Numbered from the stretch's first letter, positions 790 to 20,028 are shown. The stretch: DNA of 22,064 nucleotides from a virus (IMGVR_UViG_3300013800_000001:1-22064); one strand, 5' to 3'. The notes: generated by a model from the sequence alone, not told the origin. A program made the numbers and translations.

Positions 790-804
790 ATTCTACCAGA
801 GTAC
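790..804 (-). promoter_or_regulatory. GnACTnTGnTAnnnT motif copy (candidate late promoter)
   Basis: Minus strand GTACTCTGGTAGAAT, in the gap upstream of 250..750. Confidence 0.6.
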
Positions 805-817
805 CGAAAATCGAAGA

Positions 818-1477
818 TTAAACGATTGTTAGAGCCACGTTTTCAGCAACTGTAACTCCCTGGAATACGTTGAGCTGAGCTGCTCCAGTCGTTACTGATG
901 TGTCAGATGTCTTAGGGTTCAATACGTATGATTGTGTTCCTCTAACATTGATAGCTCCAAATGTCATTGGGGATGTAGAGTTATCAGAAGCATAGAGACT
1001 TAATGGTCCATATGGGACTGAATCATCTGAAATAACGGCTGCACGTGTTCCTCCTATCAAAAATCTCACTGTTCCAGCTTCCCAAATAATACGGAAAACT
1101 GTATTAGCTGCTGTCCAACTTGCATCCCATGTAATAGCAGATGTTGTAGTAGTTACTCCATTTGAACACTCCGCATAGAAGAATGTTCCAGTAGTTCCAA
1201 TAGAGAAGCGAACATATGATGTCCCATCTGGTGATGAAACTCCAAATGCTCTGATATCTCCACCGTCTGGTACATTAGGTATATTTACATTAAAAGAGAT
1301 GTCTCCTTTAGTGAAATCTACATAGTGAACGGCTGCGCCAGTGACTCCTGTTCCGTTATCAAAAACAAGTCTTCCTGATGGGAGAACAGCTGGAGCACCT
1401 GATGTAGTTCTCCAAAGATTTGAGTCAAATCCAGACCTAACTGGATCGTAAGAAAAACTTGTAATTATCTGTGACAT
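818..1477 (-). CDS. Beta-rich virion protein with ConA/LamG-like domain (possible capsid decoration or adhesion)
   Basis: 219 aa. FRIIWEAGTVRFLIGG resembles the concanavalin-like strand motif. Located downstream of the capsid gene. Confidence 0.45.
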   Translation of the reverse strand: MSQIITSFSYDPVRSGFDSNLWRTTSGAPAVLPSGRLVFDNGTGVTGAAVHYVDFTKGDISFNVNIPNVPDGGDIRAFGVSSPDGTSYVRFSIGTTGTFFYAECSNGVTTTTSAITWDASWTAANTVFRIIWEAGTVRFLIGGTRAAVISDDSVPYGPLSLYASDNSTSPMTFGAINVRGTQSYVLNPKTSDTSVTTGAAQLNVFQGVTVAENVALTIV

Positions 1478-1504
1478 AAAGTCTATTAATTATTCTTTAC
1501 TCCT

Positions 1505-1519
1505 AGAATAGCAAAGTCC
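1505..1519 (-). promoter_or_regulatory. GnACTnTGnTAnnnT motif copy (candidate late promoter)
   Basis: Minus strand GGACTTTGCTATTCT, upstream of 818..1477. Confidence 0.65.
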
Positions 1520-1547
1520 CTCAACAGACTTTATGTCTTTAGAAAGG

Positions 1548-2123
1548 CTATTTGGCAGCTGCTGGGCGACCTCTTTTTGGTTTTTCTACAGGAGTTGGTT
1601 CTGATACTGGAGTAGGCTCATCTGTCACTGTTTCAGTCACTTCAGCCACTATAGGGGCTGGTACATCAATTTCTTCCTCTACCTTTGCTGTCTCAGTATC
1701 TTTTCTGTCTACAATGGCTTTAATTGTGCTCTCAACCATGTCTGGGAGCATCTTTTTAGCCATTTCCATAGCTTGTGATTGAATGAGCTTCTGGAGCTCT
1801 GGAGATACATTTGAACTACCTCCTTTAACTTCTTGTTTTACTGGTGTTCCAAACTTCATTTCTGTCAAAACGTGAGCTGGCTCACTTGACTTTCTCGTAT
1901 TTGCGTATGGATCATCGGTTGGTGTCTCTGCTGCGATAAAGTCAGACTGATATCCAGGATGATTTAACATCATTTCAATAAGCGCTTCATCTTTTACTTC
2001 TGCTATACCATCTGTAAAACGAACAGATATTGTTGGTGTAGCTGGTGTACCTGTAATAGGTTGAGCTGAAAGCCCTGGTTTTAGAACTATTAAGAGATTT
2101 GAACTCTTTGATACAAACTTCAT
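1548..2123 (-). CDS. Hypothetical head-module protein with acidic/Pro-rich tail and terminal AT-hook-like motif
   Basis: 191 aa, ends in KPKRGRPAAAK. Located two genes downstream of the major capsid gene. Confidence 0.6.
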   Translation of the reverse strand: MKFVSKSSNLLIVLKPGLSAQPITGTPATPTISVRFTDGIAEVKDEALIEMMLNHPGYQSDFIAAETPTDDPYANTRKSSEPAHVLTEMKFGTPVKQEVKGGSSNVSPELQKLIQSQAMEMAKKMLPDMVESTIKAIVDRKDTETAKVEEEIDVPAPIVAEVTETVTDEPTPVSEPTPVEKPKRGRPAAAK

Positions 2124-2173
2124 AATTTTACATTATTCATATTATTTAACTGCCAGATATTCTGGGCTTAGGC

Positions 2174-2199
2174 TTAGAGGCCTCGTATGAGACCTCTAA
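2174..2199 (-). other. Intergenic RNA hairpin (11 bp, 4-nt loop), no U-tract
   Basis: Minus strand UUAGAGGUCUC-AUAC-GAGGCCUCUAA. One U.G pair forms only on the minus strand. Confidence 0.6.
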
Positions 2200-2216
2200 A
2201 GTAAGACTAGAATCGA

Positions 2217-2921
2217 CTATTCAACTTTTCCGATAACTCGTACGAAGTTTCCTGCGGCGTCTGCAAGTGTTGCAGCATCCTTTACAAGAACAACGAACTC
2301 ATCATCATCTTTTCCAGAGATCATACCCAATCCTGATGCCAGGTTTAGAGTAGTTTCTGTGGTATCGACTGAAAGAGCTGTAAAGATCTTAGTCTCAGTT
2401 GCTCCACGACGACGCCAGATTTGGAAGCTATCTGCGGCTGCAGTTCCCATGTTTACTGAGTAAACAACCTGTTGTACGTGTACACGATGTCCCTTAGGAG
2501 CATCAAAGTTACGACGAGAAGTCAAACCAACTGAAATTTGAAGTGAAACTGAAGTATCGGTCTTAACATCCCAAATAACAACTCCGTTTTCGTCTGTACC
2601 AGCAGTAACTGGAGCAGCTGCCAAAAGGTTGTCATCTGAAGGAAGTGATCGAAGAACATCGATAACCTTTGCTTCCCAACGTCCATCGGCATTGATCTTG
2701 TCAGCCAAGGCTCCGATAGTTGTATAAGTAGCGAAAAGGTATGTGTCGGTTGTTGTAGAACCTACGAGAGCCAAGCTTGTTGCTGAAACTACAGTAACAG
2801 AAACGGCTGTCTCTGATCCTACTTTACGAAGACGGATAGCAATAGGTTCGTCTGTACCATTTTGGCGGACATCACCTAGGGCTAGAAGGTTTCGTACCTG
2901 TAATGAATCTTGTGAGGGCAT
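2217..2921 (-). CDS. Putative capsid decoration/structural protein
   Basis: 234 aa, beta-rich and Ala/Thr/Val-rich, directly downstream of the major capsid gene. Assignment is positional. Confidence 0.45.
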   Translation of the reverse strand: MPSQDSLQVRNLLALGDVRQNGTDEPIAIRLRKVGSETAVSVTVVSATSLALVGSTTTDTYLFATYTTIGALADKINADGRWEAKVIDVLRSLPSDDNLLAAAPVTAGTDENGVVIWDVKTDTSVSLQISVGLTSRRNFDAPKGHRVHVQQVVYSVNMGTAAADSFQIWRRRGATETKIFTALSVDTTETTLNLASGLGMISGKDDDEFVVLVKDAATLADAAGNFVRVIGKVE

Positions 2922-2976
2922 ATTTTTCTTGTTAGGTTAAGTTAAAGGGGCAATGACCCGTGCTCCAGTAGTCGGG

Positions 2977-3051
2977 GCCCTTACGGGCTCGGAGGTGATT
3001 TATCGTCCCACCCCCGAGAAGGACTAGAGAATCCTAACTGCGATTCTCTAG
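2977..3051 (-). other. GC-rich multi-hairpin element in the 3' UTR of the major capsid gene
   Basis: Perfect 10-bp hairpin 3051-3042/3033-3024. 10-bp hairpin CUCGGGGGUG/CACCUCCGAG (3018-3009/2997-2988). GCCC-GUAA-GGGC GNRA hairpin (2988-2977). Confidence 0.65.
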
Positions 3052-3056
3052 CGAGA

Positions 3057-4316
3057 TTACGCTGTTACTCCCTTTAGAAGAGCATGTCGAGGGGCCTGTC
3101 GGCGCTCAAGACCTACTTCTGAGAGGTACTGATCTACTTCACCGTCAACATCGTTAGCCTGGATGTTCATCTCAAGCTTGGTGTCACGACCTTCCAAGTA
3201 TCGGTATTTGAAGCACTCCATATCAAGAAGATAGGCGCTACCTGCAAAATCCTCAACAAACAATGGGTTGTGAACGATATTTACTGTTCCGAAAGCTGTC
3301 TGCCATTCTGAGATACGAACACCGTATGTAGTGTCTCCTGTCTTTGTCTGGATTTGACCACGAGCAATTTCGTTAATTGCCTGAAGAACAATTCCACCAG
3401 CAAACAACATCTTAGTGCTATTTCCGTATGTGAAGGCTTCACGAAGGAAGGTATTCAAGTCAGGAGCAGTCAATGGACCACCTTGGTTCTGAACATATGA
3501 ATTACCGCTAGTAATGAACTCATCGATTCCACCTGTTGAACGACGTGGATGTCCCTGTGTACCAGTAACATCATATTTCTGCTGTCCGAACCAGAATGCT
3601 CGTTCGATGTCCAAAGCATGTTCTGTTCCCTTCTTAGCTCGCTGGTATGGAAGGTCTTTTCCACCGTAAAGTGTAGAAGCTTCTTCTGTTCCAGAAACGG
3701 CAATAGAAGTCTTGAAAATCTGTGTGTAGTTGGTCTGAGGTGTAGAGCGAGTTGCGTTAACATTTCGAGCACCTGAGTTTTCCTCGTTTACGTTACCAAC
3801 AATGAACAAACCATCACCTGCTACCATAGCTGCTGCAGCAGTCGAACCGAAAGCACGAGTAACTGTAAGAGATGTTGATGATGCGATAGCTGTAACAAGG
3901 AAGTTCTCACCAGTACGGCTGTTGCGAACAACGTCACCTACTGTGAAAATATAAGCTGAAGAAGAACCTGCACCTGTAACATCAATAGTTGTAGAACCTG
4001 AAGTTTCGGCTTCGCTAGTTCTGGCGTAACGACCACCATAAACGTCTTCGAACCACTTAAACTCTGGATTTCCAGTCACGGCCTTCATGATGCTTGATCC
4101 TGTCCAAGCTTTACCGTCCCATACCTTTCCTACGTTAGTAAGAAGAGTTACGAGTGGATGCTTGTTAGGCTCGAGAAGAAAAATCTTGTCGACAGCTTCA
4201 ACGATTAAGCGTCCTTCTGCTGAAGAAGTAGCTGAGGTACGTGCACCGTTTCCAGCTATTGATTGTACAGTACCCTGGTTATGGGTAGGCTCTGTATAAT
4301 ATGGATATTGGGGCAT
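3057..4316 (-). CDS. Major capsid protein (HK97 fold, SU10/DUF5309-like)
   Basis: 419 aa. Segments NYTQIFKTSIAVSGTEEA, HALDIERAFWFG, RSTGGI and TAFGTVNIVHNP are typical of this capsid family. Follows a scaffold-like gene. Confidence 0.88.
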   Translation of the reverse strand: MPQYPYYTEPTHNQGTVQSIAGNGARTSATSSAEGRLIVEAVDKIFLLEPNKHPLVTLLTNVGKVWDGKAWTGSSIMKAVTGNPEFKWFEDVYGGRYARTSEAETSGSTTIDVTGAGSSSAYIFTVGDVVRNSRTGENFLVTAIASSTSLTVTRAFGSTAAAAMVAGDGLFIVGNVNEENSGARNVNATRSTPQTNYTQIFKTSIAVSGTEEASTLYGGKDLPYQRAKKGTEHALDIERAFWFGQQKYDVTGTQGHPRRSTGGIDEFITSGNSYVQNQGGPLTAPDLNTFLREAFTYGNSTKMLFAGGIVLQAINEIARGQIQTKTGDTTYGVRISEWQTAFGTVNIVHNPLFVEDFAGSAYLLDMECFKYRYLEGRDTKLEMNIQANDVDGEVDQYLSEVGLERRQAPRHALLKGVTA

Positions 4317-4345
4317 ATATCTTGAAAATTAAATTAATCTATCTT

Positions 4346-5149
4346 TTAAGCTCCTGGGAAGAACGAATTTGGATTCGGACGTCCAGCAATGAACTTATCG
4401 ACGAGAGGAGTTCCGTCTGCAGAGAACTGAGACTGCTGACCACCGCCACCGGCGTTTGCCATAACAGCTTTCGCACTCTCTGCTGCTGCTAAATCTGCCG
4501 CTTTCTGCGCCTGAGATTCTGACATCTCACCCTTTACTGCATAGTAAGCAACTTTGATGTCGTTTACGTCATGAGTATCAAGCCATTTGTCGATCTTGTC
4601 GGCGTACTCCTGAAAGTCGGGAGTGTTTTCGATGAATTTGCTAGTGTATTCTTGAAAAGATTGTAGATCGGCTTTTTCTTCAAATTCCTTGCGGACTTTA
4701 GATACTTGCTCTTCTACTAACTTTGAAATAGCCTCTGGAGTTGCTAGGTCATACTTTTCTTTACCTAACTTCTCTTTGACTTCTTCGTTCGCTTGAACAA
4801 CGGCTGCTGCGTCACGAACATCAACTCTACCCTCCATCACTGCCTGAGCAATATCTTTATCTACCTTTCCATCGATAATTGCTTGCACCAGCTCAGGTGA
4901 TTGATCAAGCTTATCAAGAAGAGGAGCTATATTTTGAAAGAATTCTCTGTATTCACCAAGCTCTTGACCTTGTGTCCCGAGTCGGCTTTCCAGTTCTTTG
5001 TATGCGATAGCTTGCGCATCGTCACTTGCACTTCCTGTCTGTCCCATCTGCCCTGCCTGTGCACCGTGATCTAGGTTTGGGGTAGGAATGGGTTGTGGGC
5101 TACCCGGTAGACCGGACCCTGTATTAGGATTTTCCATAGTATTATTCAT
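4346..5149 (-). CDS. Capsid scaffolding protein
   Basis: 267 aa, acidic and helical/coiled-coil (YKELESRLGTQGQELGEYR) with disordered ends. Immediately upstream of the capsid gene. Confidence 0.7.
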   Translation of the reverse strand: MNNTMENPNTGSGLPGSPQPIPTPNLDHGAQAGQMGQTGSASDDAQAIAYKELESRLGTQGQELGEYREFFQNIAPLLDKLDQSPELVQAIIDGKVDKDIAQAVMEGRVDVRDAAAVVQANEEVKEKLGKEKYDLATPEAISKLVEEQVSKVRKEFEEKADLQSFQEYTSKFIENTPDFQEYADKIDKWLDTHDVNDIKVAYYAVKGEMSESQAQKAADLAAAESAKAVMANAGGGGQQSQFSADGTPLVDKFIAGRPNPNSFFPGA

Positions 5150-5182
5150 ATTTAATTAACTTGTAATGTACTGCGCTTCAAT

Positions 5183-5338
5183 CTAACAATTTTTGCTATC
5201 AGACTTTGCGCCTTTTTCCTTTCGTCTTTTTGAGAGTTTTTGGACTATATTAAGTAGTGATACACCCTTCTTAGAGGAGAAACCTTTTCTACCCTTTAAA
5301 GCGTCCATCACACCTGATGTGGTTTTTGATGAATCCAT
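5183..5338 (-). CDS. Small Lys-rich protein (51 aa), absent from the ORF track
   Basis: MDSSKTTSGVMDALKGRKGFSSKKGVSLLNIVQKLSKRRKEKGAKSDSKNC*. Co-oriented with neighbours and preceded by a motif copy at 5370-5384. Confidence 0.6.
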   Translation of the reverse strand: MDSSKTTSGVMDALKGRKGFSSKKGVSLLNIVQKLSKRRKEKGAKSDSKNC

Positions 5339-5369
5339 AGCTTTTAATTGGACTAAGTACTTGTTAAAT

Positions 5370-5384: not shown

Positions 5385-5395
5385 CAATTTTCGAA

Positions 5396-6183: not shown

Positions 6184-6810
6184 TTAATAACCGTATATTC
6201 CTAAGCTATTGTATGGAGCTGGAGTATTATATGTTGGTTGTTGTGGCATCTGTTGCTGTGGCTGTGGCATTGGAAATCCAGGTCCTCCTCCTCCATCAAC
6301 AACTGGAACTGAGTCTGTAGACGGTGACTTCTTGCTCTGAATACTTCTCAACATTTGCTGAATCTGATCACCTGAACCAGAGCTTAATGCTGATGTCTCC
6401 ATGTTGGCATTATCAGATGAAACTGATGGATCAATCCCATTAAGAGTATCTATTTCCTTGGCAAAGTTCTTGTATGCTGCAATAACAGCTTTAACGCCGT
6501 TTACCATCTCATTTACGCTTCTTCCTGGCTTGTTTAAAAGGTTTGACATCATTTTCTGAAGCAATTCCTTCTTCATAGCGTTACCCTTGCTATCTGAACT
6601 TGATGTAGGAGCTTCTCCCTCTGATGATTCACTATCTGGCATAGGCTCTGATCCCTCTTCATCCATAGGAGGCATTCCCCCACCCATCATAGGTGGCATA
6701 GGAGCTTCTGGTGCTGGAGGCATAGGTGGCATAGGAGGAAGACCCGCTGGTGGCATTCCTGCTCCACTCATATCTGGCATCCCTGCTGGTGGTAATTGTG
6801 ATGGGTCCAT
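6184..6810 (-). CDS. Pro/Met/Gly-rich, largely disordered protein
   Basis: 208 aa. Low-complexity PPMPP repeats flank one helical segment (KKELLQKMM...AKEIDTL). Confidence 0.7.
   Translation of the reverse strand: MDPSQLPPAGMPDMSGAGMPPAGLPPMPPMPPAPEAPMPPMMGGGMPPMDEEGSEPMPDSESSEGEAPTSSSDSKGNAMKKELLQKMMSNLLNKPGRSVNEMVNGVKAVIAAYKNFAKEIDTLNGIDPSVSSDNANMETSALSSGSGDQIQQMLRSIQSKKSPSTDSVPVVDGGGGPGFPMPQPQQQMPQQPTYNTPAPYNSLGIYGY
6273..6297. repeat. 25-bp direct repeat, copy 1 (encodes DGGGGPGF)
   Basis: gaaatccaggtcctcctcctccatc, 24/25 identical to 7170-7194. Confidence 0.85.
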
Positions 6811-6838
6811 AGAAATCTTTTAGTTACGTGTTATATAG

Positions 6839-6853
6839 AAAATAACACAGTAC
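6839..6853 (-). promoter_or_regulatory. GnACTnTGnTAnnnT motif copy (candidate late promoter)
   Basis: Minus strand GTACTGTGTTATTTT, between the portal gene and 6184..6810. Confidence 0.65.
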
Positions 6854-9049: not shown

Positions 9050-9064
9050 ACTATAGCAAAGTGC
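9050..9064 (-). promoter_or_regulatory. GnACTnTGnTAnnnT motif copy (candidate late promoter)
   Basis: Minus strand GCACTTTGCTATAGT, 13 nt upstream of the portal ATG. Confidence 0.65.
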
Positions 9065-9070: not shown

Positions 9071-10528
9071 TTAATAGGATGAAGACTCTGGCATATGACT
9101 TTCATAATCAATTTGCCCTAAAGTGCCCGAATACATCACTTTGAAGCCCTGAAATCCTATAGCGGTAGCAAAAATACAGTCGTCATTAAACGAGCTTTGC
9201 GAAACCATATCGCCATGATCGTTAAAAACGAACGTAAGCATTTCATCTAGGGTTTTTTCGCTATGCAATTTTAGACTTCCATCAGATAATGCCTCTCTCA
9301 AATCATCAATCATCAATGGACGAGTGACCTTAGTTGTTTTCCACCCCAATCTATCGCTAAATTTCATAGAAATAGTATCCATTTTCACAACTGGCCTAAA
9401 ATATAGTTGAGGATACATCTTATTTTTGAGAGCAGTGACTGTAGTAAGCCCATGGTTGTTAATTTCCACAACCATAAGGGCGTTATTGTACATTCTTCCT
9501 ATTCTGTCTAGGTAATTACCGAATCTATCTGGAGCCATATAACCTCTCCAAAAACCAACCTCATGGCCATTTTTTCGGTCAAATATAGTGAATACTGAAT
9601 AGTCACCTCCAGTTACACCCTCAGCAACGTCAGCACCAATAATATAGGTTCTACCTGGTCTTGGTGGGTAATACATGACAAAGTCATCTTCATCTTTTGT
9701 AACAACACTTTTAATGCCCTCTTCATCTTCTACCTCTTGACCAACCTTATAAATGCCTTTTCTAAGCCTTTTTATAAGCTGTCCTGGGAAAACTGGACGT
9801 CCAGCTGATAGAAATTCAAGACTGTATTCCTGCGCAAAACGCATAGGATCATTGATACGTCTCCTGATTATTTCTACTTGTTCCTCAGTATAACCCCACC
9901 ACCATCCATACTTTTTCTTGCAATAATCGTTATCTGCCATCCACATACGGTGATAAAGATTACCCATAGCATTCGGTGTGCTCTCTATAATAATCTTCCC
10001 ATCCTGAGGAACAGCGTTTTCAATAGCAAGCATCTTCTCTTCTGCTTTATCCCAGAAAGCTAGCTCTGTACAGAGAACATTATGGAGGGTATATCCACGA
10101 CCTACGTTTTCACTAGAAGGGAGCACAAGGATCTTTGAATCAATGGCAGGAAAGCTGATTTCGTATTTGCTATTGTATTGAATCTTAGGGCGAATAGACT
10201 CTGGAGTTGTTCGATAAAAAGTCTTTACCTTATCAAGAAGCTCAGCTGTAAGGTCAGAGTTATACCCAATAAGGGCAGTGTTAGTACCAGGGGTGGTAAT
10301 TGTTTTATGGTAAAGATAACCAGTTACGGCTGTAGAGAACCCCATTTGGCGAGCTTTAAGAATAATGACTCGTGAATGGGTATTTAAAGCATTGAAAAGA
10401 TCTTTCTGGGCCTCATTCAAGATAAAAGGCACCAAACCTGGCGTCTTTCCCTTCAGCTTCGTGAAGCTCTCTAAATAGAACTTAGGGTCTAAAAGCTTAT
10501 CAATTGACGGTTTCTCATTAATCTCCAT
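9071..10528 (-). CDS. terL: Terminase large subunit
   Basis: Walker A LKARQMGFST, Walker B-like VLCTE, coupling motif IESTPN, and RuvC-like nuclease motifs IIGADVAEG, VEINNHG and DDCIFA. Confidence 0.95.
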   Translation of the reverse strand: MEINEKPSIDKLLDPKFYLESFTKLKGKTPGLVPFILNEAQKDLFNALNTHSRVIILKARQMGFSTAVTGYLYHKTITTPGTNTALIGYNSDLTAELLDKVKTFYRTTPESIRPKIQYNSKYEISFPAIDSKILVLPSSENVGRGYTLHNVLCTELAFWDKAEEKMLAIENAVPQDGKIIIESTPNAMGNLYHRMWMADNDYCKKKYGWWWGYTEEQVEIIRRRINDPMRFAQEYSLEFLSAGRPVFPGQLIKRLRKGIYKVGQEVEDEEGIKSVVTKDEDDFVMYYPPRPGRTYIIGADVAEGVTGGDYSVFTIFDRKNGHEVGFWRGYMAPDRFGNYLDRIGRMYNNALMVVEINNHGLTTVTALKNKMYPQLYFRPVVKMDTISMKFSDRLGWKTTKVTRPLMIDDLREALSDGSLKLHSEKTLDEMLTFVFNDHGDMVSQSSFNDDCIFATAIGFQGFKVMYSGTLGQIDYESHMPESSSY

Positions 10529-11099
10529 GTTTTTTAGGTTCTACATCATAAATACTAGATGTTATCTCATCCTCATCTTCCTGCATCAAACGAGCAGATT
10601 CTGGTATCTCTGGCTTAATCACTTCATATGTAGGAATAACGCCGTCTGAAATCTCTTTCATGTCTGACCCAAGCTCTTTTTGCTCGTTAATCTTTTCAAG
10701 GAGAACTTCTTCCCATGATCCTGAACCGCCTCCTGAATCTTCTTTGTATGTATCCATACCTACAGATTTCAAAAGCGTCTGTAATGCTTTCAACTTATCA
10801 GCATCCTTAAATCCATCCATAGCGATGTTCTTCAGACCCTTCACGATAAAATCAAAAGAAATACCTGACTTGGCTAGAGCCTCATGATATTCCTTTCTCA
10901 TCGCCATCTTATCAAGCGTCCTATATACTTCAGCTACCGTTTTAACCCCTATCATCTCCTTGAGTTTTTTAGGGTCTTGCGTAACCTGGAGTGCCTTCAA
11001 CAAAAACATCTGCTGAGCAGTATTTTGAGCACCCTTCTTTACATGATTTGTAGTATAAACTACTGGTCTAAGCCTTATTTTTGGTTTTTCCTCTTCCAT
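10518..11099 (-). CDS. Putative terminase small subunit
   Basis: 193 aa, helical, overlaps the terL start by 11 nt. Pattern: HTH-like N-terminal part, then an oligomerisation helix (DADKLKALQTLLK), then an acidic tail. Assignment is largely positional. Confidence 0.6.
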   Translation of the reverse strand: MEEEKPKIRLRPVVYTTNHVKKGAQNTAQQMFLLKALQVTQDPKKLKEMIGVKTVAEVYRTLDKMAMRKEYHEALAKSGISFDFIVKGLKNIAMDGFKDADKLKALQTLLKSVGMDTYKEDSGGGSGSWEEVLLEKINEQKELGSDMKEISDGVIPTYEVIKPEIPESARLMQEDEDEITSSIYDVEPKKHGD

Positions 11100-11761
11100 T
11101 ATAGTACATCAAAATTAAATTTATCATTCTCCCAAAACTTCTTGAGATCATTGTTTCTAATATACGGCCAATTGAAATGGCCTCCAATCAATTGGTATTT
11201 TTTTCTCCCATGTTCATCGTTATAACAAAGAGCCCAGTTTAGAGCCCAATTTATGAACTCAGCATAACTCATTCCTCTTTTTTCGGCTTCTGCTAGCATT
11301 TCAAGTCTATTGTCCATCTGATATACAAATACCAAAAAATCTAGCGTCACATGTTTATATGGAAACTTATACATTTCTGGTTTTTCAAAAGGATCCTCAA
11401 AAAGAAACTTTGGGAAGAAATCCTTTAAATAGGTAGCTATTGGTGTGAATATAAAGCTGATAGTCACCGGACGATGACTTATTCCAACCTCTATTTTAGT
11501 AAATTTACCATATGTGTTATCGGAGACAGAGTTGTTTCCTACACGTTTGGTTCTTCGAAAATTAGATACGAAGAGTTGTTGTTCAAGCCATATCTGCTTG
11601 ACTATTGTTTCAAAAATTGAGGTATGTGCTTCTCTGTAAAACTTCCTGAATCTAGCAACATACTTATCAAGAGAACTACCTTTGCATGACAGTGTCTGTT
11701 TTCTTTTTTCCCAGCCCTCTATACTACAAATGTCCTCATACGTTTTGGGGTAAAATTTCAT
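11099..11761 (-). CDS. Hypothetical protein
   Basis: 220-aa ORF rich in aromatic and basic residues. Overlaps its neighbours, suggesting translational coupling. Confidence 0.7.
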   Translation of the reverse strand: MKFYPKTYEDICSIEGWEKRKQTLSCKGSSLDKYVARFRKFYREAHTSIFETIVKQIWLEQQLFVSNFRRTKRVGNNSVSDNTYGKFTKIEVGISHRPVTISFIFTPIATYLKDFFPKFLFEDPFEKPEMYKFPYKHVTLDFLVFVYQMDNRLEMLAEAEKRGMSYAEFINWALNWALCYNDEHGRKKYQLIGGHFNWPYIRNNDLKKFWENDKFNFDVL

Positions 11762-12161
11762 TTTGATTATTATTATTCATATTACTTCCAGGAATATCCA
11801 ACATAGCATTTGGATCCTGAGGCTCTCCAAAAGAGTTCACTTCGCTATTTCCCAAAAGAACATCCATAGATTCCTCAAACATTTGTGCTAATTCAGGGTT
11901 ATTCTCCTTTAGACTAGCAATAAATTCAGCAACAGAGTTTTTATCAGAAAGGTCAACACCAGCCATCTGAAGCTTTTCAAATACCTGCTTTAACATACTC
12001 TTTCTGAACTCTTCAGTCTTGTTATCAGAAGCAAATCTAACTGCACTCAAAGGAGTCAGTTTGTCTTTAATCTTCTGAATCATACCAAGGAGTTCCTGCT
12101 TCTGTTCATCAGAAACTGGCATACCTGTTGGCTGACCTGGTTGCATCTGTTGAAAATCCAT
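11736..12161 (-). CDS. Hypothetical helical protein with Gln/Pro-rich N-terminus
   Basis: 141-aa ORF preceded by a motif copy at 12177-12191. Confidence 0.7.
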   Translation of the reverse strand: MDFQQMQPGQPTGMPVSDEQKQELLGMIQKIKDKLTPLSAVRFASDNKTEEFRKSMLKQVFEKLQMAGVDLSDKNSVAEFIASLKENNPELAQMFEESMDVLLGNSEVNSFGEPQDPNAMLDIPGSNMNNNNQNEILPQNV

Positions 12162-12176
12162 ATATTTCTTTTAATA

Positions 12177-12191
12177 ATAATATCAGAGTAC
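12177..12191 (-). promoter_or_regulatory. GnACTnTGnTAnnnT motif copy (candidate late promoter)
   Basis: Minus strand GTACTCTGATATTAT, upstream of 11736..12161 and the TerS/TerL genes. Confidence 0.65.
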
Positions 12192-12193: not shown

Positions 12194-15100
12194 CTATTGG
12201 GCACTACCGCCGTCTTTAAAATTCGTGTTTACTGGAGCTTGTACTGAAATTCCACTAGCCTGCAACAGTCCACGTAGAGTACGTGATGTTTTAGGTTCTT
12301 TACTTGAAATACCTAGCTGGTTTTTACCTTCTTTTGCTTCAGATAACTGTCTCCATCTATAGCTAGGAATATATTTAGCTGCCTCTTCTGGTGTGAGCAG
12401 ACCAGCGTATGATGTAATGTTTGGGACAAAAGCTTCTCCAAATGTTCTTGCACCATACCCAAGTTTTTCTAGTCCTGTGGCGTCAACAGGATACAGCGGT
12501 TGTCCAAACTGACCCTGTGGGCGAATAGCTTCTCCAAGTATAAGAGGTTGAATCAGATAGTCAAACAATACACTTCCAGCTGGATCTTTTAGTATAGGAG
12601 AACCTTGTAATGCTTGTGTAAGCTGCTCTCTTGCAGAATCACCATAGTTAGTCTGGCTAGGATTGAACATGTTCAAAGAATAGTATGGGATCATACTAGC
12701 CATGTTCAAATATATAGGATTCTTTTCGAAGAATGGTAGACGGAACATCCCAGGTTGGTTCAAGTAAGAATAAAAGTCAGTATCCAAAGCTTTTTTCTCT
12801 AGTGGAGTCTTTGTCCCTCCAAAATCCTTCATAGCAAAATTGACCTTGTTAAACGCAGCTGGGTTATAAGCTAGTGTTTGACCTGTTTTTAGGGCCATTC
12901 CATACATGAATGATACAAACGGAGATCCCATCAATGGCATATTTCGAAGAACTCTAACGGCCGCTGGCATAGCGTTATAGTTCAAATACATAGCATTTGC
13001 CAGTTCTATAGCTGACTTTGGCGATAGACGATAAAGATTCTGTCCATCTTTTGCATACTTTCCTAAAGCTAATTCTTCAGGAGTCATATTGATAAGATGA
13101 CGCATTTGTCGAAGCTGGTTTATATCATAACCATCAACAGTTGCTCTAAGAAACGTAGCCATTTTAAAGGTCTGGTCAATCTTCTCATAACCTGAAGGCA
13201 TCTTATTCAAAGTGAAATCAAGAAGCTTCCATGCAATATTTGATGGATCTGACTTAGCCTTCTCAGCTATATGGTCAAACATAGCAGCTGTGGCTCTAGA
13301 GTTGAACATTTCATTAGAAAGCATACCTGTACCAATATCTGCTCTTGATACCTCTTTCCCTGCTTTAATGATCCCTCTAACAGGCTCTGTACCGGCGTTC
13401 ATTCTTATTTCTGCCAACTCATCCATTGCTCCCCTTAGGCTATCTTTTATATCATCTACCTTTACAGCAGATGACAACATTCCATTATCTCTTCCTCTCT
13501 GTAGAAGTACCTCTGCGTAATCATTAGCGTTAAGAAAGCTCAAGTCTCCAAATGTACCTCTAGCGGCAGTCTTATTATCTAAAATACCCCTTCTAATCAG
13601 GTTCTCATCGCCAAGTGATTTACCGGCGCTCATTAGAAGACCATCCAGAAAAGCTGCTGATCCAGACTTATTACGATACATATCAAAAGATTGCTTCAAT
13701 CGAGCAATAAATTGTGGGCTAACATCCCCATTTGCCATGTGGGTCATGATCATGTTTCCTACAACAGCGTTCGTCCAAGCAGTAGGAGATGCTCCAACTT
13801 TTGCAGCACGAAATATACCCATAGCTTGGTCGTACTTGTCCATAACGTTCTTACCAATAGCTACAGCCTTATCCTTATTCTTGTTTGTTTGGATAGTATA
13901 AGACTTGATTCCTCCCATCATCTTATCGAACCATTTGACTCCAGTTTCTTCCAAAGCTCCAGAATTTACTATTTTAGCGATATCTTCCATAGTTATCTGT
14001 TCTCCACCAATTTTTTCATTGGCAATACGAAGAGCATTCTCCATTGGATCTGCAGATATGAATGTATTAGGGTTCTTTAGGATAGATGCCGTATCATCAA
14101 CGCCATTTACAATATCTGGTGCAGCTTCAGCTACCTTTGTTTCTAGTCCAGTTCCAGCCAATTTTGCTACCATTGTATCTACCTCTTTTGCTGTAGGTAA
14201 CGCTGATACTGATTCTGTATCTATGCCGAATGGTACTTTCACAGGACTGGCAGCCTTAACAGCTGAAGAAAACTCTTCTGCACCCTGTTTTAAGAATGGC
14301 TCAATAGATTCTCCCCTCAAATGAGCATTTATAGCCCCTTTCATATCAGCCCCTTGTCCGAGTGATTCCTGGACAACATCCTTAATCCTCGCCTGTCTAA
14401 CCCATTCAACAGGGTCATAGATAAAATTATCCAATATCTTAGCTCCATTGGGAGTAGATTCAGCTGCTTTTTTTATTAAATCTCCTAGTCCTAATCTATA
14501 TGATCCAGAGAATAGACTTCCACCTATACCCTTACCTTGAGAAACGATACTAGCAGCAGTAATACCACTCAGGTCTTCCCATGAATTTGTAGTCTTGATA
14601 GCGGCCTCTCCTAGCTTTTTAAATGCGTCTGATTTTCTAAAGAATGGAGTATATCTACCTGCCACAGAGGCTTTTTCTAATATACTTGACTTCCCAGCTA
14701 TTGAAAGTCCTTTTAGAGCGCCTTCACCGGTCTGGACGCCTTTATAAAGACCCATTCCAAGTCTTGGAACTAAGGCCCCTGTACCCATTGTTGCCCAGTT
14801 TACTGGGTCCATTGTTATATCCAAAGCAAAACCAAGTGGCGCTGCTACTGCCCATGGGACATTAGAGTTTTTCAATACATCTCCAAACGTATTCTTATTT
14901 CTAACCATGTTATCAGCTACATCTTGCTGAAGAGAGCCTTTCCCTTGTCCAGTAAAATGCTTTGTAGCTCCAACAACTCCATAAAGTGGCCTAGAAAGGT
15001 AATCTAATGTAGAGCGAAAAAACCCAGGTGAGTCTTCTCCAGAGTCTGCGGCGTTCTTTTGTTTTGCATCAGTTCCGTACCATTTTGTCTTTAGTCTTGA

Positions 15101-15295
15101 ATCTTCAAGGCTTTGTATCTGACTATTGATACGATTAAGAGACTCCTGATCAGAAATATCAGAAGCTGTAGGTTTTCCATTCCCACCAAGTGCTGTAGGA
15201 GATGACCTTAACTGACTGTCGAATCTTCCTGCTTCTTGTTGGAGATTTGATATTTGTCTCTCAAGATTAGGAATATCTGAAGGTTTTGTTGCCAT
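12194..15295 (-). CDS. Large putative internal virion (ejection/pilot) protein
   Basis: 1033 aa, Ala/Gly-rich and helical, with glycine-rich hydrophobic stretches (APLGFALDITMDPVNWATMGTG) typical of podovirus-like core proteins. No catalytic motif recognised. Confidence 0.5.
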   Translation of the reverse strand: MATKPSDIPNLERQISNLQQEAGRFDSQLRSSPTALGGNGKPTASDISDQESLNRINSQIQSLEDSRLKTKWYGTDAKQKNAADSGEDSPGFFRSTLDYLSRPLYGVVGATKHFTGQGKGSLQQDVADNMVRNKNTFGDVLKNSNVPWAVAAPLGFALDITMDPVNWATMGTGALVPRLGMGLYKGVQTGEGALKGLSIAGKSSILEKASVAGRYTPFFRKSDAFKKLGEAAIKTTNSWEDLSGITAASIVSQGKGIGGSLFSGSYRLGLGDLIKKAAESTPNGAKILDNFIYDPVEWVRQARIKDVVQESLGQGADMKGAINAHLRGESIEPFLKQGAEEFSSAVKAASPVKVPFGIDTESVSALPTAKEVDTMVAKLAGTGLETKVAEAAPDIVNGVDDTASILKNPNTFISADPMENALRIANEKIGGEQITMEDIAKIVNSGALEETGVKWFDKMMGGIKSYTIQTNKNKDKAVAIGKNVMDKYDQAMGIFRAAKVGASPTAWTNAVVGNMIMTHMANGDVSPQFIARLKQSFDMYRNKSGSAAFLDGLLMSAGKSLGDENLIRRGILDNKTAARGTFGDLSFLNANDYAEVLLQRGRDNGMLSSAVKVDDIKDSLRGAMDELAEIRMNAGTEPVRGIIKAGKEVSRADIGTGMLSNEMFNSRATAAMFDHIAEKAKSDPSNIAWKLLDFTLNKMPSGYEKIDQTFKMATFLRATVDGYDINQLRQMRHLINMTPEELALGKYAKDGQNLYRLSPKSAIELANAMYLNYNAMPAAVRVLRNMPLMGSPFVSFMYGMALKTGQTLAYNPAAFNKVNFAMKDFGGTKTPLEKKALDTDFYSYLNQPGMFRLPFFEKNPIYLNMASMIPYYSLNMFNPSQTNYGDSAREQLTQALQGSPILKDPAGSVLFDYLIQPLILGEAIRPQGQFGQPLYPVDATGLEKLGYGARTFGEAFVPNITSYAGLLTPEEAAKYIPSYRWRQLSEAKEGKNQLGISSKEPKTSRTLRGLLQASGISVQAPVNTNFKDGGSAQ

Positions 15296-15320
15296 GATGC
15301 AACTATACTACAATCCCACT

Positions 15321-15716
15321 TTATTCGATAACTCTTCTATTGAGTATTTTCTCTCTTGGGTCAAGTGCTCCTTCATACCCTTCCTTTTCTGCTACCTTAG
15401 CGAAATACTTCCTCCAAGCATCTTTAGGGTAAAACTTGATCATGTATTTACCAGTTATCATCTTCTGATACTGACCAGCCCATCCTATTTTGTCTTTTTG
15501 CCTTACTAGAGCTATATCTCCGAGATGAGGGAGCCTAACTACTCCATTTTCCTTCAATTCAGATGTTAATAGCTTCACAAGGCCTTCATAGAATAGTTTT
15601 ATAGTCCTTTGATCAACATAGTTGTTGTATTCAGACAAAAGACGAAAAAAACGGGCTTCGTCAAAAGCTCCGCTTTTCTTTAATGCTTTTATATCTATCT
15701 TTGGTGTGTGCGCCAT
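15321..15716 (-). CDS. HU/IHF-like DNA-binding protein
   Basis: 131 aa. ELKENGVVRLPHLGDIALV...MIKFYPKDAWRKYF matches the HU beta-sheet/arm/C-helix pattern. Lacks the usual RNP arm motif. Confidence 0.65.
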   Translation of the reverse strand: MAHTPKIDIKALKKSGAFDEARFFRLLSEYNNYVDQRTIKLFYEGLVKLLTSELKENGVVRLPHLGDIALVRQKDKIGWAGQYQKMITGKYMIKFYPKDAWRKYFAKVAEKEGYEGALDPREKILNRRVIE

Positions 15717-15719
15717 AAT

Positions 15720-16060: not shown

Positions 16061-16069
16061 TACTTTTAG

Positions 16070-16098
16070 ATGATACACAACTGCTAACGTATTGTCAA
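16070..16098 (-). promoter_or_regulatory. Sigma70-type promoter driving the ncRNA/HU/head operon
   Basis: Minus strand TTGACA (16098-16093), 17-nt spacer, TATCAT (16075-16070). Confidence 0.75.
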
Positions 16099-16120
16099 GT
16101 CTTTTAGACTCTTGTATATT
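16092..16120 (+). promoter_or_regulatory. Sigma70-type promoter driving the plus-strand gene
   Basis: TTGTCA (16092-16097), 17-nt spacer, TATATT (16115-16120). Its -35 overlaps that of the minus-strand promoter. Confidence 0.65.
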
Positions 16121-16125
16121 AAGGG

Positions 16126-16150
16126 TAGTTTTTTAACAATAGAACCAGAC
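16126..16150. repeat. Left arm of a 25-bp inverted repeat
   Basis: tagttttttaacaatagaaccagac. 23/25 match to the reverse complement of 17010-17034, with the inner 17 bp perfect. Confidence 0.9.
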
Positions 16151-16163
16151 ATATAAACTTTGG

Positions 16164-16195
16164 GCAAGAAGTCGCATTTTGTTGCGCAAGAAGTC
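16164..16195. repeat. Two 10-bp direct repeats GCAAGAAGTC, 22 bp apart
   Basis: Copies at 16164-16173 and 16186-16195, in the leader of the plus-strand gene. Confidence 0.75.
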
Positions 16196-16211
16196 CCTAC
16201 AACACACACAT

Positions 16212-16988: not shown

Positions 16989-17009
16989 TCGAGGACCTTA
17001 AATAAACCC

Positions 17010-17034
17010 GTCTGGTTCTATTGTTAGAAAGCTA
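17010..17034. repeat. Right arm of the 25-bp inverted repeat
   Basis: gtctggttctattgttagaaagcta. The outer edge overlaps the TAG stop of the 17032..17211 ORF. Confidence 0.9.
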
Positions 17035-17211
17035 TTTTCTCTCTAAATGATCTGCAAGTTTCCTGAGAATAGCAACAAGTTCGATGCTACCGGCTACATC
17101 AGCCTTAACAATACCTATATCATTGCCATCTGTCTCAATGATAATCTGGCGCATTTTAATAGGCACTTTTTCTTGAACTTTTTTCTCTTCTACTACTGGT
17201 CCTTCTGGCAT
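17032..17211 (-). CDS. Small protein (59 aa), absent from the ORF track; last gene of the tail cluster
   Basis: MPEGPVVEEKKVQEKVPIKMRQIIIETDGNDIGIVKADVAGSIELVAILRKLADHLERK*. Starts 4 nt after the stop of 17216..17491. Confidence 0.7.
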   Translation of the reverse strand: MPEGPVVEEKKVQEKVPIKMRQIIIETDGNDIGIVKADVAGSIELVAILRKLADHLERK

Positions 17212-17215
17212 ATAT

Positions 17216-17491
17216 TTATTGTGACTTTATTAAGTTCCCTGTTTCTATATCAATAGAATAATCAAGTGGACTTACCGGTGATATTGACTCAAACTCTTTC
17301 AAGATATCTATTTTATCAAGATTATAGTCAATTGAGTCTTTCCCTTTCTGAATCCAACCGATAACGTACTTCCCTATATTTTCCTCTGGAGTACCGTCGC
17401 TTATTTTGCATTGTAGAGCAAATTCATCATGAACTCTCCCATCTACTACAGAGAATACTTTACCTGTGTCTTTTTTGTAAAATAGAATCAT
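17216..17491 (-). CDS. Hypothetical tail-associated protein
   Basis: 91 aa, coupled to the upstream gene by an ATGA overlap. Follows tail-fibre-like genes, so possibly a chaperone. Confidence 0.6.
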   Translation of the reverse strand: MILFYKKDTGKVFSVVDGRVHDEFALQCKISDGTPEENIGKYVIGWIQKGKDSIDYNLDKIDILKEFESISPVSPLDYSIDIETGNLIKSQ

Positions 17492-18144
17492 AATCGTCCT
17501 TTATCAATAAAAATATAATAAGCGTAATCAAAAGTTATATTAGCCCCTCCTGCTCCATAGTCTTCTGCTTGAAATACTATATAGGAATATGTGTCATTTG
17601 AATAGCAATTAAAGTAGAAATCAGTTCCTCCGAAGCCAAAAACGTACGTTCCAATATTGTAGAAATCACCTGGTACAAAGTATACACCAGCCTGGTCACT
17701 CCAATATGCCTGCGTCATTGGAATATATCCCAAGTTGTGGGTTATTACCACCGCTGACTGTGTTTGAAACGTAATCGTACCAGAACCTGCTGATGTTATA
17801 TCTATGGCTGATCCACCTGATGTCAAAGATAGCTGAAACGTATCTGCTGTCTTATTAATAACATAGTATATATTAAACTTCTCTAAAGGAGCTGGCATTG
17901 TAGCATCAGAATCTATAAACACCTGGTTTCCATTTAACAATCCATGGGCAACACAAGTAAAGAAGTCTGTCCCTGTATTTATTGCTGTTATCGTATTTAG
18001 ATTGATAGTTTGTGGTACAGAAATGCTTCCAGACCCAGATAAGCTCCCTTTTAATGTGGAGTACTTTGAAGTAATCACCATATCCTTATCGGCGCCTGTT
18101 TTTACATCGATTCCGTCTCTAGATAGTCTGAATCCAAGGTCCAT
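17488..18144 (-). CDS. Tail/virion protein, paralog of 18146..19150
   Basis: N-terminal unit LGFRLSRDGIDV...ITSKYSTLK, an inserted HGLxNG...YYVIN...FQLSLTSGGSAIDITSAGSGT module, then ITHNLGY. Confidence 0.6.
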   Translation of the reverse strand: MDLGFRLSRDGIDVKTGADKDMVITSKYSTLKGSLSGSGSISVPQTINLNTITAINTGTDFFTCVAHGLLNGNQVFIDSDATMPAPLEKFNIYYVINKTADTFQLSLTSGGSAIDITSAGSGTITFQTQSAVVITHNLGYIPMTQAYWSDQAGVYFVPGDFYNIGTYVFGFGGTDFYFNCYSNDTYSYIVFQAEDYGAGGANITFDYAYYIFIDKGRL

Positions 18145-18145
18145 A

Positions 18146-19150
18146 TTAAATGCTTTTATTCTTGAATATTACGTAGTATATAGCGTCATTATAGCCACCA
18201 AAGCTTAATGTAGATGTATTAATAGTTGTGACATCATTAGCCAATCTTAGGTAACTTTTACCGTTTGGTCTCCCGTAAGACAAAAAAGATGGCAAATATC
18301 CCAAATCATGACTAGTTGACGACCCAGCAAATCCTTTTTTATGAATAATACTAGAGAAGAAAGAGCTAGAAAGTATCAGGTCTATATCTTCGCATGTTTT
18401 CACATCAAATCCAGGTTTGCTTATCTTTAATCCATAATCATTGGATGATGAACCGACACTTGTTCCTGTAGATATGGTACTCGCACTATAGGAATCGAAT
18501 GTATCTAAAAACTGATAGCACGTGAAATAAACGGTAGTAGAAGCGACTTGGTTATCAAACAACGAACGAACATATATCTCGGTCGTATTGTCATATATCC
18601 TAATATCTAGCTGTCCGAACTGTTCAGCCATAAAATTACTTGTTCCTCCACTTGATTCAACGCCATTGTAATTAAAAATCCATGGCGATTTATACCCAAG
18701 ATTGTGAGTTATGACAATTTTGTTTGTTTCCGAGTTCCATTCATGTGTACCACTACCGGCACTCGTTATATCTACGGCTGATCCTCCCGATGTAAGTGAA
18801 ACTTGGAAGGTATTAGTTGTGGCATTTATTACGTAATACACTAATCCTACTCTTTCAAAAACAAAAGCATCAACCTCCTCAATATACAGTGATAAACCCC
18901 CTGGTAACGTGCCGTCAGTGCTAAAATAAACTACTTCTCCGTTGTTTAACCCATGCCCAGCTGATGTTAGAGTATCAGTCCCAGCATCTGCTGTTACAGT
19001 GGCAAAATTGTCTCTTGGTGTATCACAAGAAACGCTATAAGTGGCTAGAACCTTCAAATTAAGGAAAGATGAACTAAAGACTAGAAATCTGTCCGCACAA
19101 TCCCTTACATCATAGCCTTTTTGAGAGACTTTTGCTCCGTAACTGCCCAT
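18146..19150 (-). CDS. Tail/virion protein with duplicated YGxKxSxxGxDV unit
   Basis: Units YGAKVSQKGYDV...FSS and YGLKISKPGFDV...LSS, each followed later by H(N/D)LGY. Same inserted HGLNNG module as 17488..18144. Confidence 0.6.
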   Translation of the reverse strand: MGSYGAKVSQKGYDVRDCADRFLVFSSSFLNLKVLATYSVSCDTPRDNFATVTADAGTDTLTSAGHGLNNGEVVYFSTDGTLPGGLSLYIEEVDAFVFERVGLVYYVINATTNTFQVSLTSGGSAVDITSAGSGTHEWNSETNKIVITHNLGYKSPWIFNYNGVESSGGTSNFMAEQFGQLDIRIYDNTTEIYVRSLFDNQVASTTVYFTCYQFLDTFDSYSASTISTGTSVGSSSNDYGLKISKPGFDVKTCEDIDLILSSSFFSSIIHKKGFAGSSTSHDLGYLPSFLSYGRPNGKSYLRLANDVTTINTSTLSFGGYNDAIYYVIFKNKSI

Positions 19151-19157
19151 ATCATAT

Positions 19158-20006
19158 TTAAAAACCGTTTAATAGATATCCAAGTAAAAATCTATCATTT
19201 GCTGTATCCGCAAGAAGTATTCTTGAGTTCTCCGAATCTATTGTTATCTTACCTGTTGGATCTTGAAATGTAGTAGATGTAATTGTCCACCCAGCTATTG
19301 ACCCAGATGAGGCTACAATTTCTCCTGATTCTGAAATTCTGAATGGGGCTGTAGATCTATCAGCAAAACTGCTTCCAGCCCAAAATCGAATATCATCTCC
19401 TGATGTCACCACTGAAGATAGACCGAAACTATCATCTGTATCTCTAATATAATCCGTTCCAAGTGTAAATCCGCCTACCGTACCGGACTCGGCGACTATT
19501 ACACCTGATTCTAATACTCTAAAAGGTGCTGTATATCTATCTTCAAATGTACTTCCAGCCCAAAAACGGACATCATCACCAGTTGTTACCGTAGAAGAGA
19601 GCCCGAAACTGTTAGCTTCATCTCTAACATAGTCAGATCCTATTTCAAAGCCTCCTATAGACCCCGTTAGGGCCTCAATATTGCCACTTACAAAGACGTT
19701 TGTGAACTCAGCATACCCAGTACCCCCATCTATGTAAAAACCGACGCTTTTCGGCTTCCAATTGATTGATTTTATGAAGCTTTTTATCCAAATATCTCCT
19801 AATCCTCCATCGTCTTTTACTGGCATCTGTTGAACGTTCCCATTTTCTCCAGAATAGCCAAAACCACCGTCATACTGTGATGTATAATTGGTGGAATTTG
19901 GCTCTCCTACAGCTTTTGGAGTAGTTTGACTTGATGATTCAGGAACTCTCTGTAAAAGACTGTTGTAGGGCTGATTAATTTTCTCGTAATTGTCTGTATC
20001 ACTCAT
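19158..20006 (-). CDS. Tail fibre/spike-like protein with two tandem 60-aa repeats
   Basis: G(S/T)(I/V)GGF...RFWAGS...TAPFR repeats at aa 115-174 and 175-234, followed by a partial third (GSIAGW). Confidence 0.65.
   Translation of the reverse strand: MSDTDNYEKINQPYNSLLQRVPESSSQTTPKAVGEPNSTNYTSQYDGGFGYSGENGNVQQMPVKDDGGLGDIWIKSFIKSINWKPKSVGFYIDGGTGYAEFTNVFVSGNIEALTGSIGGFEIGSDYVRDEANSFGLSSTVTTGDDVRFWAGSTFEDRYTAPFRVLESGVIVAESGTVGGFTLGTDYIRDTDDSFGLSSVVTSGDDIRFWAGSSFADRSTAPFRISESGEIVASSGSIAGWTITSTTFQDPTGKITIDSENSRILLADTANDRFLLGYLLNGF
19305..19664 (-). repeat. Tandem 180-bp intragenic repeat (2 units)
   Basis: cttccagcccaaaa recurs exactly 180 bp apart (about 19372 and 19552), matching the 60-aa protein repeat. 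Confidence 0.85.
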
Positions 20007-20013
20007 ATTTCAG

Positions 20014-20028
20014 AGCATAACACAGTCC
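20014..20028 (-). promoter_or_regulatory. GnACTnTGnTAnnnT motif copy (candidate late promoter)
   Basis: Minus strand GGACTGTGTTATGCT, only 7 nt upstream of the ATG at 20006. Confidence 0.65.

Follow-up and report, generated by a model that had tools for sequence, protein, structure and literature searches.

A probable promoter class lacking a -35 element ahead of replication and virion genes in a family of uncultured phages

We found that the first 22 kb (22,064 nucleotides (nt); hereafter the window) of the complete virus record IMGVR_UViG_3300013800_000001 (G000; 99,376 base pairs (bp), with an 82-bp terminal repeat and 39.6% G+C) display seven copies of a 15-nt word that, judging from its sequence and setting, is most likely a promoter core, often placed so as to start the mRNA exactly at the start codon. 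Together with its occurrences in the rest of the genome and in related viruses, the word probably marks a promoter class that acts at the DNA level, is specific to a family of roughly 100-kb uncultured phages, dispenses with a -35 element and serves the genes for replication and particle building. A search of the window with the pattern GNACTNTGNTANNNT recovered exactly seven matches, all on the minus strand and none on the plus strand, which are the very copies listed by a first-pass annotation of this sequence:

790..804, minus strand: putative promoter core GTACTCTGGTAGAAT; predicted start A at 783; 166-amino-acid (aa) tail-fibre-like gene (250-750) 39 nt downstream
1505..1519, minus strand: putative promoter core GGACTTTGCTATTCT; predicted start A at 1498; 219-aa gene (818-1477) 27 nt downstream; kept in the related locus L001
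5370..5384, minus strand: putative promoter core GGACTGTGCTATTTT; ATG 31 nt downstream, opening the block 3057-5338 with 51-aa, 267-aa and major capsid genes
6839..6853, minus strand: putative promoter core GTACTGTGTTATTTT, 2 nt past the portal stop codon; predicted start A at 6832; 208-aa gene (6184-6810)
9050..9064, minus strand: putative promoter core GCACTTTGCTATAGT; portal ATG (9036) 13 nt downstream
12177..12191, minus strand: putative promoter core GTACTCTGATATTAT; predicted start A at 12170; ATG 15 nt downstream; heads a run of 141-aa, 220-aa and 193-aa genes and the large terminase (9071-12161); kept in L001
20014..20028, minus strand: putative promoter core GGACTGTGTTATGCT; ATG (20006) 7 nt downstream; fibre-like gene cluster 17032-20006, the mRNA of which is predicted to be leaderless or nearly so

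Each copy lies in a short gap with minus-strand open reading frames (ORFs) on both sides; the preceding stop codon is 2-28 nt away and the following ATG 7-39 nt, and the genes served comprise a tail-fibre-like gene, the capsid block, the post-portal gene, the portal, the large-terminase operon and the fibre-like cluster. Dinucleotide shuffles of the window (n = 100) yielded a mean of 0.30 matches and a maximum of two, none of them reaching seven. Across the whole of G000 there are 11 exact matches, the further ones being at 28935, 88241, 93198 and 97386, against an expectation of 1.15 for both strands together in first-order Markov simulations. The minus strand holds every one of the 11, each of them intergenic by simple ORF calls, in a genome with an intergenic share of 9.0%; the word is thus not equally frequent in coding regions or on the plus strand. 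The minus-strand genes, among them 26 tRNA genes, form a single run that opens at 73.6 kb, crosses the genome end and continues through the window as far as 30.2 kb; the intervening plus-strand block (30.2-73.6 kb), encoding RecA, an SNF2 helicase, ParB-like and AAA proteins and others, is devoid of exact copies. Copies with one mismatch at 27737, 28155, 82063 and 84560 are likewise intergenic and on the minus strand, with an ATG 6-10 nt away, and the remaining one-mismatch matches are scattered within genes on both strands.

The same signal is a feature of the relatives. Among 26 viral loci fetched with the portal protein (66-90% aa identity), exact matches number 43 on the coding strand and one on the opposite strand, and a second complete genome (G001; 101,483 bp, 35.6% G+C) has nine exact copies versus 0.85 expected, all nine intergenic and eight of them within the large structural block; the comparison with related phages to which the first-pass annotation had pointed favors the class. 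When the sequences ahead of the portal ATG are aligned, all relatives save L018 and L023, in which no box is present there, retain a strict or relaxed box at its spacing, and the flanks have diverged beyond recognition. At this junction many relatives have the box exactly 6 nt from the ATG, for which we predict a leaderless portal mRNA. The post-portal junction, occupied by 6839-6853 in the window, carries the motif again in L001, L002, L003, L005, L010 and L025. Several relatives show GKACT-nTA-n-TAnnnT or a TG displaced by one base, with GKACT, the 4-bp gap and TAnnnT remaining constant. No near-identical record was found in the phage collection, and the terminase and capsid proteins have relatives among deposited phages only at ≤33% identity. 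A scan of a viral-contig collection for GGACTTTGATANNNTNNNNNTA returned 113 loci, just two of which have a second copy of the general motif (i.e., background), and a literature string search with six common forms of the word retrieved unrelated primers only.

To describe the element we used 44 non-redundant sites with an ATG within 60 nt and an independent set of 21 sites that feature GKACT-N4-TAnnnT without the canonical TG. Numbered from the predicted start, the architecture is R(-22) G(-21) K(-20) A(-19) C(-18) T(-17) n T(-15) G(-14) n T(-12) A(-11) nnn T(-7), followed by five bases and T(-1) A(+1). The hexamer TAnnnT is in every site by definition of the pattern and has a TAtaaT-like consensus; the TG at -15/-14 is found in all 11 exact G000 sites, T-17 is invariant, position -16 is mostly T rather than a purine in the 44 sites, and the 5-bp GKACT sits 4 bp upstream of TAnnnT in all strict and relaxed sites. 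Information content from -40 to -29 is close to zero in the 44 sites and none of the seven window sites is picked up as a promoter by a generic sigma-70 -35/-10 scan, both of which support the absence of a -35 beside the TG-preceded -10 hexamer described earlier. The flanks of the 44 sites share no similarity, indicating that they are not copies of a repeat.

Two further positions, neither of which was part of the search pattern, point to the start of transcription: the seventh base past the final T (+1) is A in 37 of 44 sites (and in 20 of 21 in the TG-less set), and at -1 a T is found in 28 of 44. The distance from the final T to the ATG in the 44 sites ranges from 6 to 55 nt and is never shorter than 6, with a mode at 6 (10 sites) and others at 7 and 8. 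As the final T occupies -7, the A of the ATG falls on +1 when the gap is 6 nt, and a pile-up at 6 nt with nothing shorter is what is expected of a -10 element ahead of leaderless genes. The start 6-8 nt past the final T that the first-pass annotation had anticipated fits both the 6-nt floor and the conservation of T(-1)A(+1), and we consider it the likely one. Shine-Dalgarno-like sequences (-18 to -4) are found in 4 of 142 G000 ORFs, fewer than in the control window (19), and translation in this phage seems to run without Shine-Dalgarno pairing. The scan for terminators revealed only one convincing instance on the minus strand of the window (210-227); with no terminators before them, the sites would be internal promoters. 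Complementarity seen by eye at 6839, 5370 and 20014 had raised an RNA hairpin as a general feature, which was ruled out by folding the word with 45 downstream bases at the 44 sites (mean z = 0.14, no signal).

The bases T-12, A-11, T-7, TG at -15/-14 and T-17 are those that primary sigma factors read with their regions 2 and 3, leaving G-21, K-20, A-19, C-18 and R-22 to be explained otherwise. The extended -10 element consists of T-17 R-16 T-15 G-14 and makes sigma region 4 and the -35 element dispensable (PMC7403470; PMC3950348). The label "extended -10" given to the motif earlier fits all 11 exact G000 sites as regards TG, but this is the less constant half of the element, since GKACT is kept where TG varies. 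Similarly, of the GnACT that had been set apart as an extra element only GKAC (-21 to -18) is truly extra, because its T belongs to the known extended -10 (PMC7403470).

We propose that a host sigma-70-type holoenzyme would recognize these promoters, with region 2 reading TAnnnT and region 3 reading T-17/TG, the latter contact making sigma region 4 and a -35 box unnecessary, and with the invariant GKAC at -21 to -18 supplying class specificity. Transcription would start at the A seven bases past the final T; where this A belongs to the ATG, as it often does, the mRNA would be leaderless. The promoters would be set densely within runs of replication, virion and packaging genes, with no terminators ahead of them. 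Other transcription units would use a conserved TTGACA-N17-TACACT class, and the change from one class to the other may come about through blocked -35 recognition, for which a 75-aa protein consisting of sigma region 4 alone is the candidate blocker (both described below).

The first-pass annotation had placed every copy upstream of virion or packaging genes, which is true of the window but not of the class, as a TG-less box heads the replication module in all five readable genomes:

G000 45724, minus strand: replication-module box
G001 95398, minus strand: replication-module box
L161 1165, minus strand: replication-module box
L164 9952, plus strand: replication-module box
L165 9952, plus strand: replication-module box

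In each of the five, the box precedes a 98-aa DUF5659-like gene with a leader of 30-54 nt and stands back to back with a TTGACA promoter; four of the five have A at the seventh base. Behind the DUF5659-like gene come a DnaD/RepO-like loader, an IstB-like ATPase and a primase-helicase. Like those of many relatives, the sites here have TG replaced by TA or AT, or moved by one base. Reading timing from gene content only, we infer that the class would cover middle (replication) and late (virion) expression.

The second class takes the form of a 30-bp unit, cTTGACAaatggaaaatcatcatgTACACT, which recurs almost unchanged at 11 or more positions on both strands of G000, and of looser versions in the window:

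G000 22183, 27382, 27765, 30300, 45345, minus strand: TTGACA-class unit
G000 45761, 45808, 51551, 58120, 64784, 71802, plus strand: TTGACA-class unit
172..199, minus strand: looser version, TTGACA-N16-TATACT, directly past the terminator at 210-227
16070..16098, minus strand: looser version, TTGACA-N17-TATCAT, heading a leader, an HU-like gene and a 1033-aa gene
16092-16120, plus strand: TTGTCA promoter, back to back with 16070-16098 on the minus strand

Downstream of these units are the tRNA arrays, several plus-strand operons and the operon opened by the sigma-like gene, and the relatives carry the same TTGACAAATGGAAAG start of the unit. Its existence as a second conserved class confirms that the 15-nt word is distinct from the TTGACA promoters at 172-199 and 16070-16120, as had been claimed. 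The spacer of the TTGACA unit is as strongly conserved as its hexamers, which suggests that it is a protein-binding site, beyond recognition by sigma.

The sigma-like gene (G000 45868-46095, plus strand) encodes the 75-aa protein, a sigma-70 region 4 on its own (PF04545, E = 1.3e-11, above the curated cut-off) that aligns to primary-sigma region 4 with an identical recognition helix (VTRERIRQI). Upstream of it are two tandem TTGACA promoters in G000 and a TTGACA-N18-TATAAT promoter in G001. The gene is found in all five large relatives examined and is always followed by one for a Cas4/PD-(D/E)XK-like protein of ~185-200 aa; the 188-aa partner in G000 was itself considered as a sigma and rejected, as it matches a Cas4-like PHROG instead. 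An exhaustive search of a library of 1.8 billion proteins retrieved many region-4-only proteins of 70-120 aa, on contigs of 1-7 kb that hold no late genes. Searches outside the phage family for the box in company with a region-4-only gene returned the known relative only when pattern-based on loci, and two proteins when based on a word index. The recognition helix suits TTGACA and not GKACT, so the most economical role for the protein is interference with -35-dependent initiation. By analogy with gp39 and AsiA, which displace sigma region 4 and spare extended -10 promoters (PMC7403470; PMC3950348), it might occupy TTGACA boxes or compete for the beta flap and in doing so favor the class without a -35; as an early product encoded behind TTGACA promoters, it is a plausible class switch.

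What reads the GKAC box is a separate matter. Its position is that of the Z-element (contacted by the beta-prime zipper), a 5-bp box 4 bp upstream of the -10 that can replace the -35 (Yuzenkova et al. 2011, PMC3173786). The Z-elements AACCT and AACAT have a loose consensus, with single substitutions changing activity less than 2-fold, and a natural promoter regulon based on a Z-type box was predicted in that study, not shown (PMC3173786). GKACT differs from them in sequence, sharing the final T with both AACCT and AACAT and the preceding C with AACCT only, and is almost invariant. This near-invariance of GKAC, unlike the tolerance of Z-elements, argues for base-specific reading by a dedicated protein. 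We lean, by a little, toward a phage protein that binds beside sigma; an appreciable but lesser possibility is that RNA polymerase contacts the box directly, as it does a Z-element.

The search for a sigma or activator gene that the first-pass annotation had called for brought to light only the region-4-only protein and an Xre-type helix-turn-helix (HTH) protein (G000 36659-37018). No match to sigma region 2 (Sigma70_r2; TIGR02937) was obtained in the genome, the DxDxD motif is absent from all large proteins of the phage, and Pfam/PHROG scans of ~100 further ORFs uncovered no other sigma or polymerase; the T7-type polymerase model (PF00940) also had no match, a weak negative given that the control failed to match as well. 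Besides the Xre-type protein, the candidate DNA binders include an HU/IHF-type protein (window 15321-15716, minus strand; PF00216, E = 8.8e-06), whose gene follows the TTGACA promoter at 16098 and a long leader, and a 168-aa protein (G000 73144-73650, plus strand) that is the last gene of the plus-strand block. The latter has several CxxC pairs, weak matches to rubredoxin and zinc-ribbon ribosomal proteins and 47% identity to its counterpart in G001, and is possibly a nucleic-acid-binding regulator. A further candidate is the 98-aa DUF5659-like protein (G000 45373-45669, minus strand), which opens the replication module and has the box ahead of its gene. It shows 60-88% identity over 195 clusters, a conservation equal to or above that of the portal protein, and is modeled with confidence as an alpha/beta domain with a long C-terminal helix (predicted local distance difference test score 86); this structure has no fold match in the PDB, and a role as the box reader is neither supported nor refuted by it.

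A more daring combination, which we regard as unlikely, is that nature has made of GKACT a promoter element rich in information at the Z position, with the free region 4 acting as the switch: it would deprive the TTGACA class of its -35 contact, whether by sitting on TTGACA boxes or through competition for the beta flap. In the boldest form of this combination, a region-4-type HTH, belonging either to the free domain or to the displaced host sigma, would dock on the box at about -22 to -17. Tagami et al. placed the displaced sigma region 4 next to DNA at -19 to -26 (PMC3950348). If true, such docking would amount to a promoter with a 4-bp "spacer", which is in no known sigma-70-type promoter.

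Among explanations other than a promoter read by the host holoenzyme, the best surviving, though improbable, is that the whole 15-nt word is read by a phage sigma factor, either T4 gp55-like or unrecognizable in sequence, or by a phage RNA polymerase. The strict retention of the invariant positions across diverged relatives would suit a dedicated reader of this kind, for which the many small early proteins without annotation offer room. Sigmas of the gp55 type are too divergent for the Pfam region-2 models, and the word bears a loose likeness to the GACTCACTATA of T7-type promoters. Nevertheless, the conserved bases include exactly those that primary sigmas read, and the start geometry is that of a bacterial -10 element; a T7-type start would fall inside the word. 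Moreover, beyond the want of region-2, T7-type (the weak negative) and DxDxD matches noted above, the large unannotated proteins look like virion-type or polyvalent proteins.

Less probable still is a function in RNA, the word serving as a cleavage site for an endoribonuclease of phage or host, or as a binding site for a protein or the ribosome, and so separating or activating the cistrons of long read-through transcripts. It does lie between cistrons, right after stop codons and with no terminators between the genes; the phage has RNA-repair genes (RtcB and a phosphoesterase); and single sites can pair with sequence downstream, as at 6839-6853, where L001 has a matching double change. However, the 44 sites give no fold signal, the distance to the ATG (6-55 nt) is unsuited to a translation signal, and neither the 6-nt floor nor the A at +1 nor the overlap of the invariant bases with TG and TAnnnT would be accounted for. 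Hardly probable at all is another oriented DNA site (a sigma-dependent pause or a repressor operator) or a by-product in part of shared ancestry: sigma-dependent pausing is indeed enhanced when a Z-like box stands 4 bp ahead of a -10-like sequence (PMC3173786) and the sites do lie inside long co-directional runs, but a pause needs neither the 6-nt ATG minimum nor A at +1, sites at the head of units match the class (e.g., that of the replication module, which has a divergent promoter and no upstream gene on the same strand), and the dissimilar flanks are not those of repeat copies.

Several observations weigh against a promoter class read by the host holoenzyme, in whole or in part. The TG is changed or shifted in many relatives, so that the class is not uniformly of the extended -10 type. 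Only four of the seven window sites have A exactly at the seventh base past the final T, the other three being one base off. The two classes are not strictly exclusive, as the site at 27737 lies inside a full TTGACA-N17-TACACT unit (27765, minus strand): the spacer of this hybrid (27737-27765) holds GGACT at the class-specific position, with an ATG 7 nt away, and such a promoter could be active in both programs. What connects the region-4-only protein with a switch is only analogy and its joint presence with the box in five related genomes. Finally, the bin labels of related contigs are mutually discordant as to the host (Bacteroidales, Bacilli and Colwellbacteria metagenome-assembled genomes, MAGs). 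One portal relative is on a 6.5-kb contig of a Bacteroidales MAG, in which the extended pattern has no matches versus two in the control. The primary sigma of Bacteroidota is expected to use a -33 TTTG and a -7 TAnnTTTG; this TAnnTTTG is not enriched between the phage genes, which counts against recognition by the host sigma if the host belongs to Bacteroidota.

The closest parallels to the proposed holoenzyme-read class come from Thermus phage P23-45 (with gp39) and from T4 AsiA, which are alike in having post-early promoters with a -10 and TG, no -35 and the host polymerase; their early and host promoters are of the -10/-35 type, and a small phage protein disables the contact of region 4 with the -35, which moves transcription over to the phage class (PMC3950348, PMC7403470). 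In contrast to P23-45, there is here an additional invariant GKAC box, more constant than TG, and in contrast to the gp39/AsiA binders, the protein that might act as the switch is sigma region 4 itself in free form. In the Thermus phage Lalka27a, late promoters of its own type have been mapped: transcription begins 6 nt past the -10, most mRNAs are leaderless and the late genes have no terminators between them; it resembles the present family in a consensus specific to the temporal class, a late signature without a -35 and dense promoters, and its phage factor is postulated only (bioRxiv 10.64898/2026.04.20.719267). Its signature, TAGGGT with C at -25, is different from GKACT-N4-TAnnnT, it belongs to a different family, and the starts were measured there and deduced here.

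T4 middle promoters are comparable in using host sigma at the -10, a phage box that replaces the -35 and a sidelined region 4, but the MotA box is centered near -30, whereas the box here spans -21 to -17 with nothing conserved near -30, and no homologue of MotA or AsiA was seen in the phage. T4 late promoters combine a TATAAATA -10 box with a gp55-like sigma, in contrast to the TG-preceded TAnnnT here, for which no region-2-like gene was found (one of the gp55 type could escape the models). T7-like promoters start inside or directly after the word, unlike the conserved A 7 nt past it. The kind of signal, namely phage promoters without a -35 and with leaderless mRNAs, is thus documented in Thermus phages; the box sequence is new here, its position and the candidate switch are unusual, and we regard the finding as solid but not surprising.

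In practical terms, the rule GKACT-N4-TAnnnT-N5-TA marks non-early units and probable starts across the phage family, and aids the annotation of operons, start codons and leaderless genes. The presence in one genome of two sharply different promoter classes and an early, free sigma region 4 constitutes a testable model for switching between temporal programs. Were the polymerase itself to be the reader, the phages would provide the first example of a natural regulon on an element at the Z position; if a phage protein reads the box, it would bind closer to the -10 than any activator compared here.

A degenerate copy in the window is a weaker candidate for the same class:

15302..15316, minus strand: degenerate copy GGATTGTAGTATAGT (T in place of C-18, TA in place of TG); ATG of the 1033-aa gene exactly 6 nt downstream

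The 1033-aa protein (12194-15295, minus strand) has no Pfam or PHROG match, and its nearest Atlas clusters are large phage proteins of the polyvalent/MuF-C type (LPD38, LPD3). It was considered as a sigma or polymerase and set aside on account of this resemblance to polyvalent/MuF-type virion proteins.

Some local features of the loci are also of note. The site at 6839-6853 overlaps an inverted repeat, GTGTTAT ... ATAACAC (6826-6853, minus strand), for which L001 (5666-5693) has ATGTTAT ... ATAACAT, with both arms changed; other relatives are without it and the repeat may be local. In L015, L016, L017 and L020 the portal match extends over ~3160 nt, compared with ~2200 nt in the others, and the extra ~950 nt suggest an insertion, such as an intein, an intron or a homing-endonuclease gene. 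The 26 tRNA genes adjoin genes for an RtcB RNA ligase (E = 5.5e-142, phrog_1075) and a NinI-like phosphoesterase (G000 22198-27325 and window 20039-21917, both minus strand), and this ensemble looks like a module for tRNA supply and repair.

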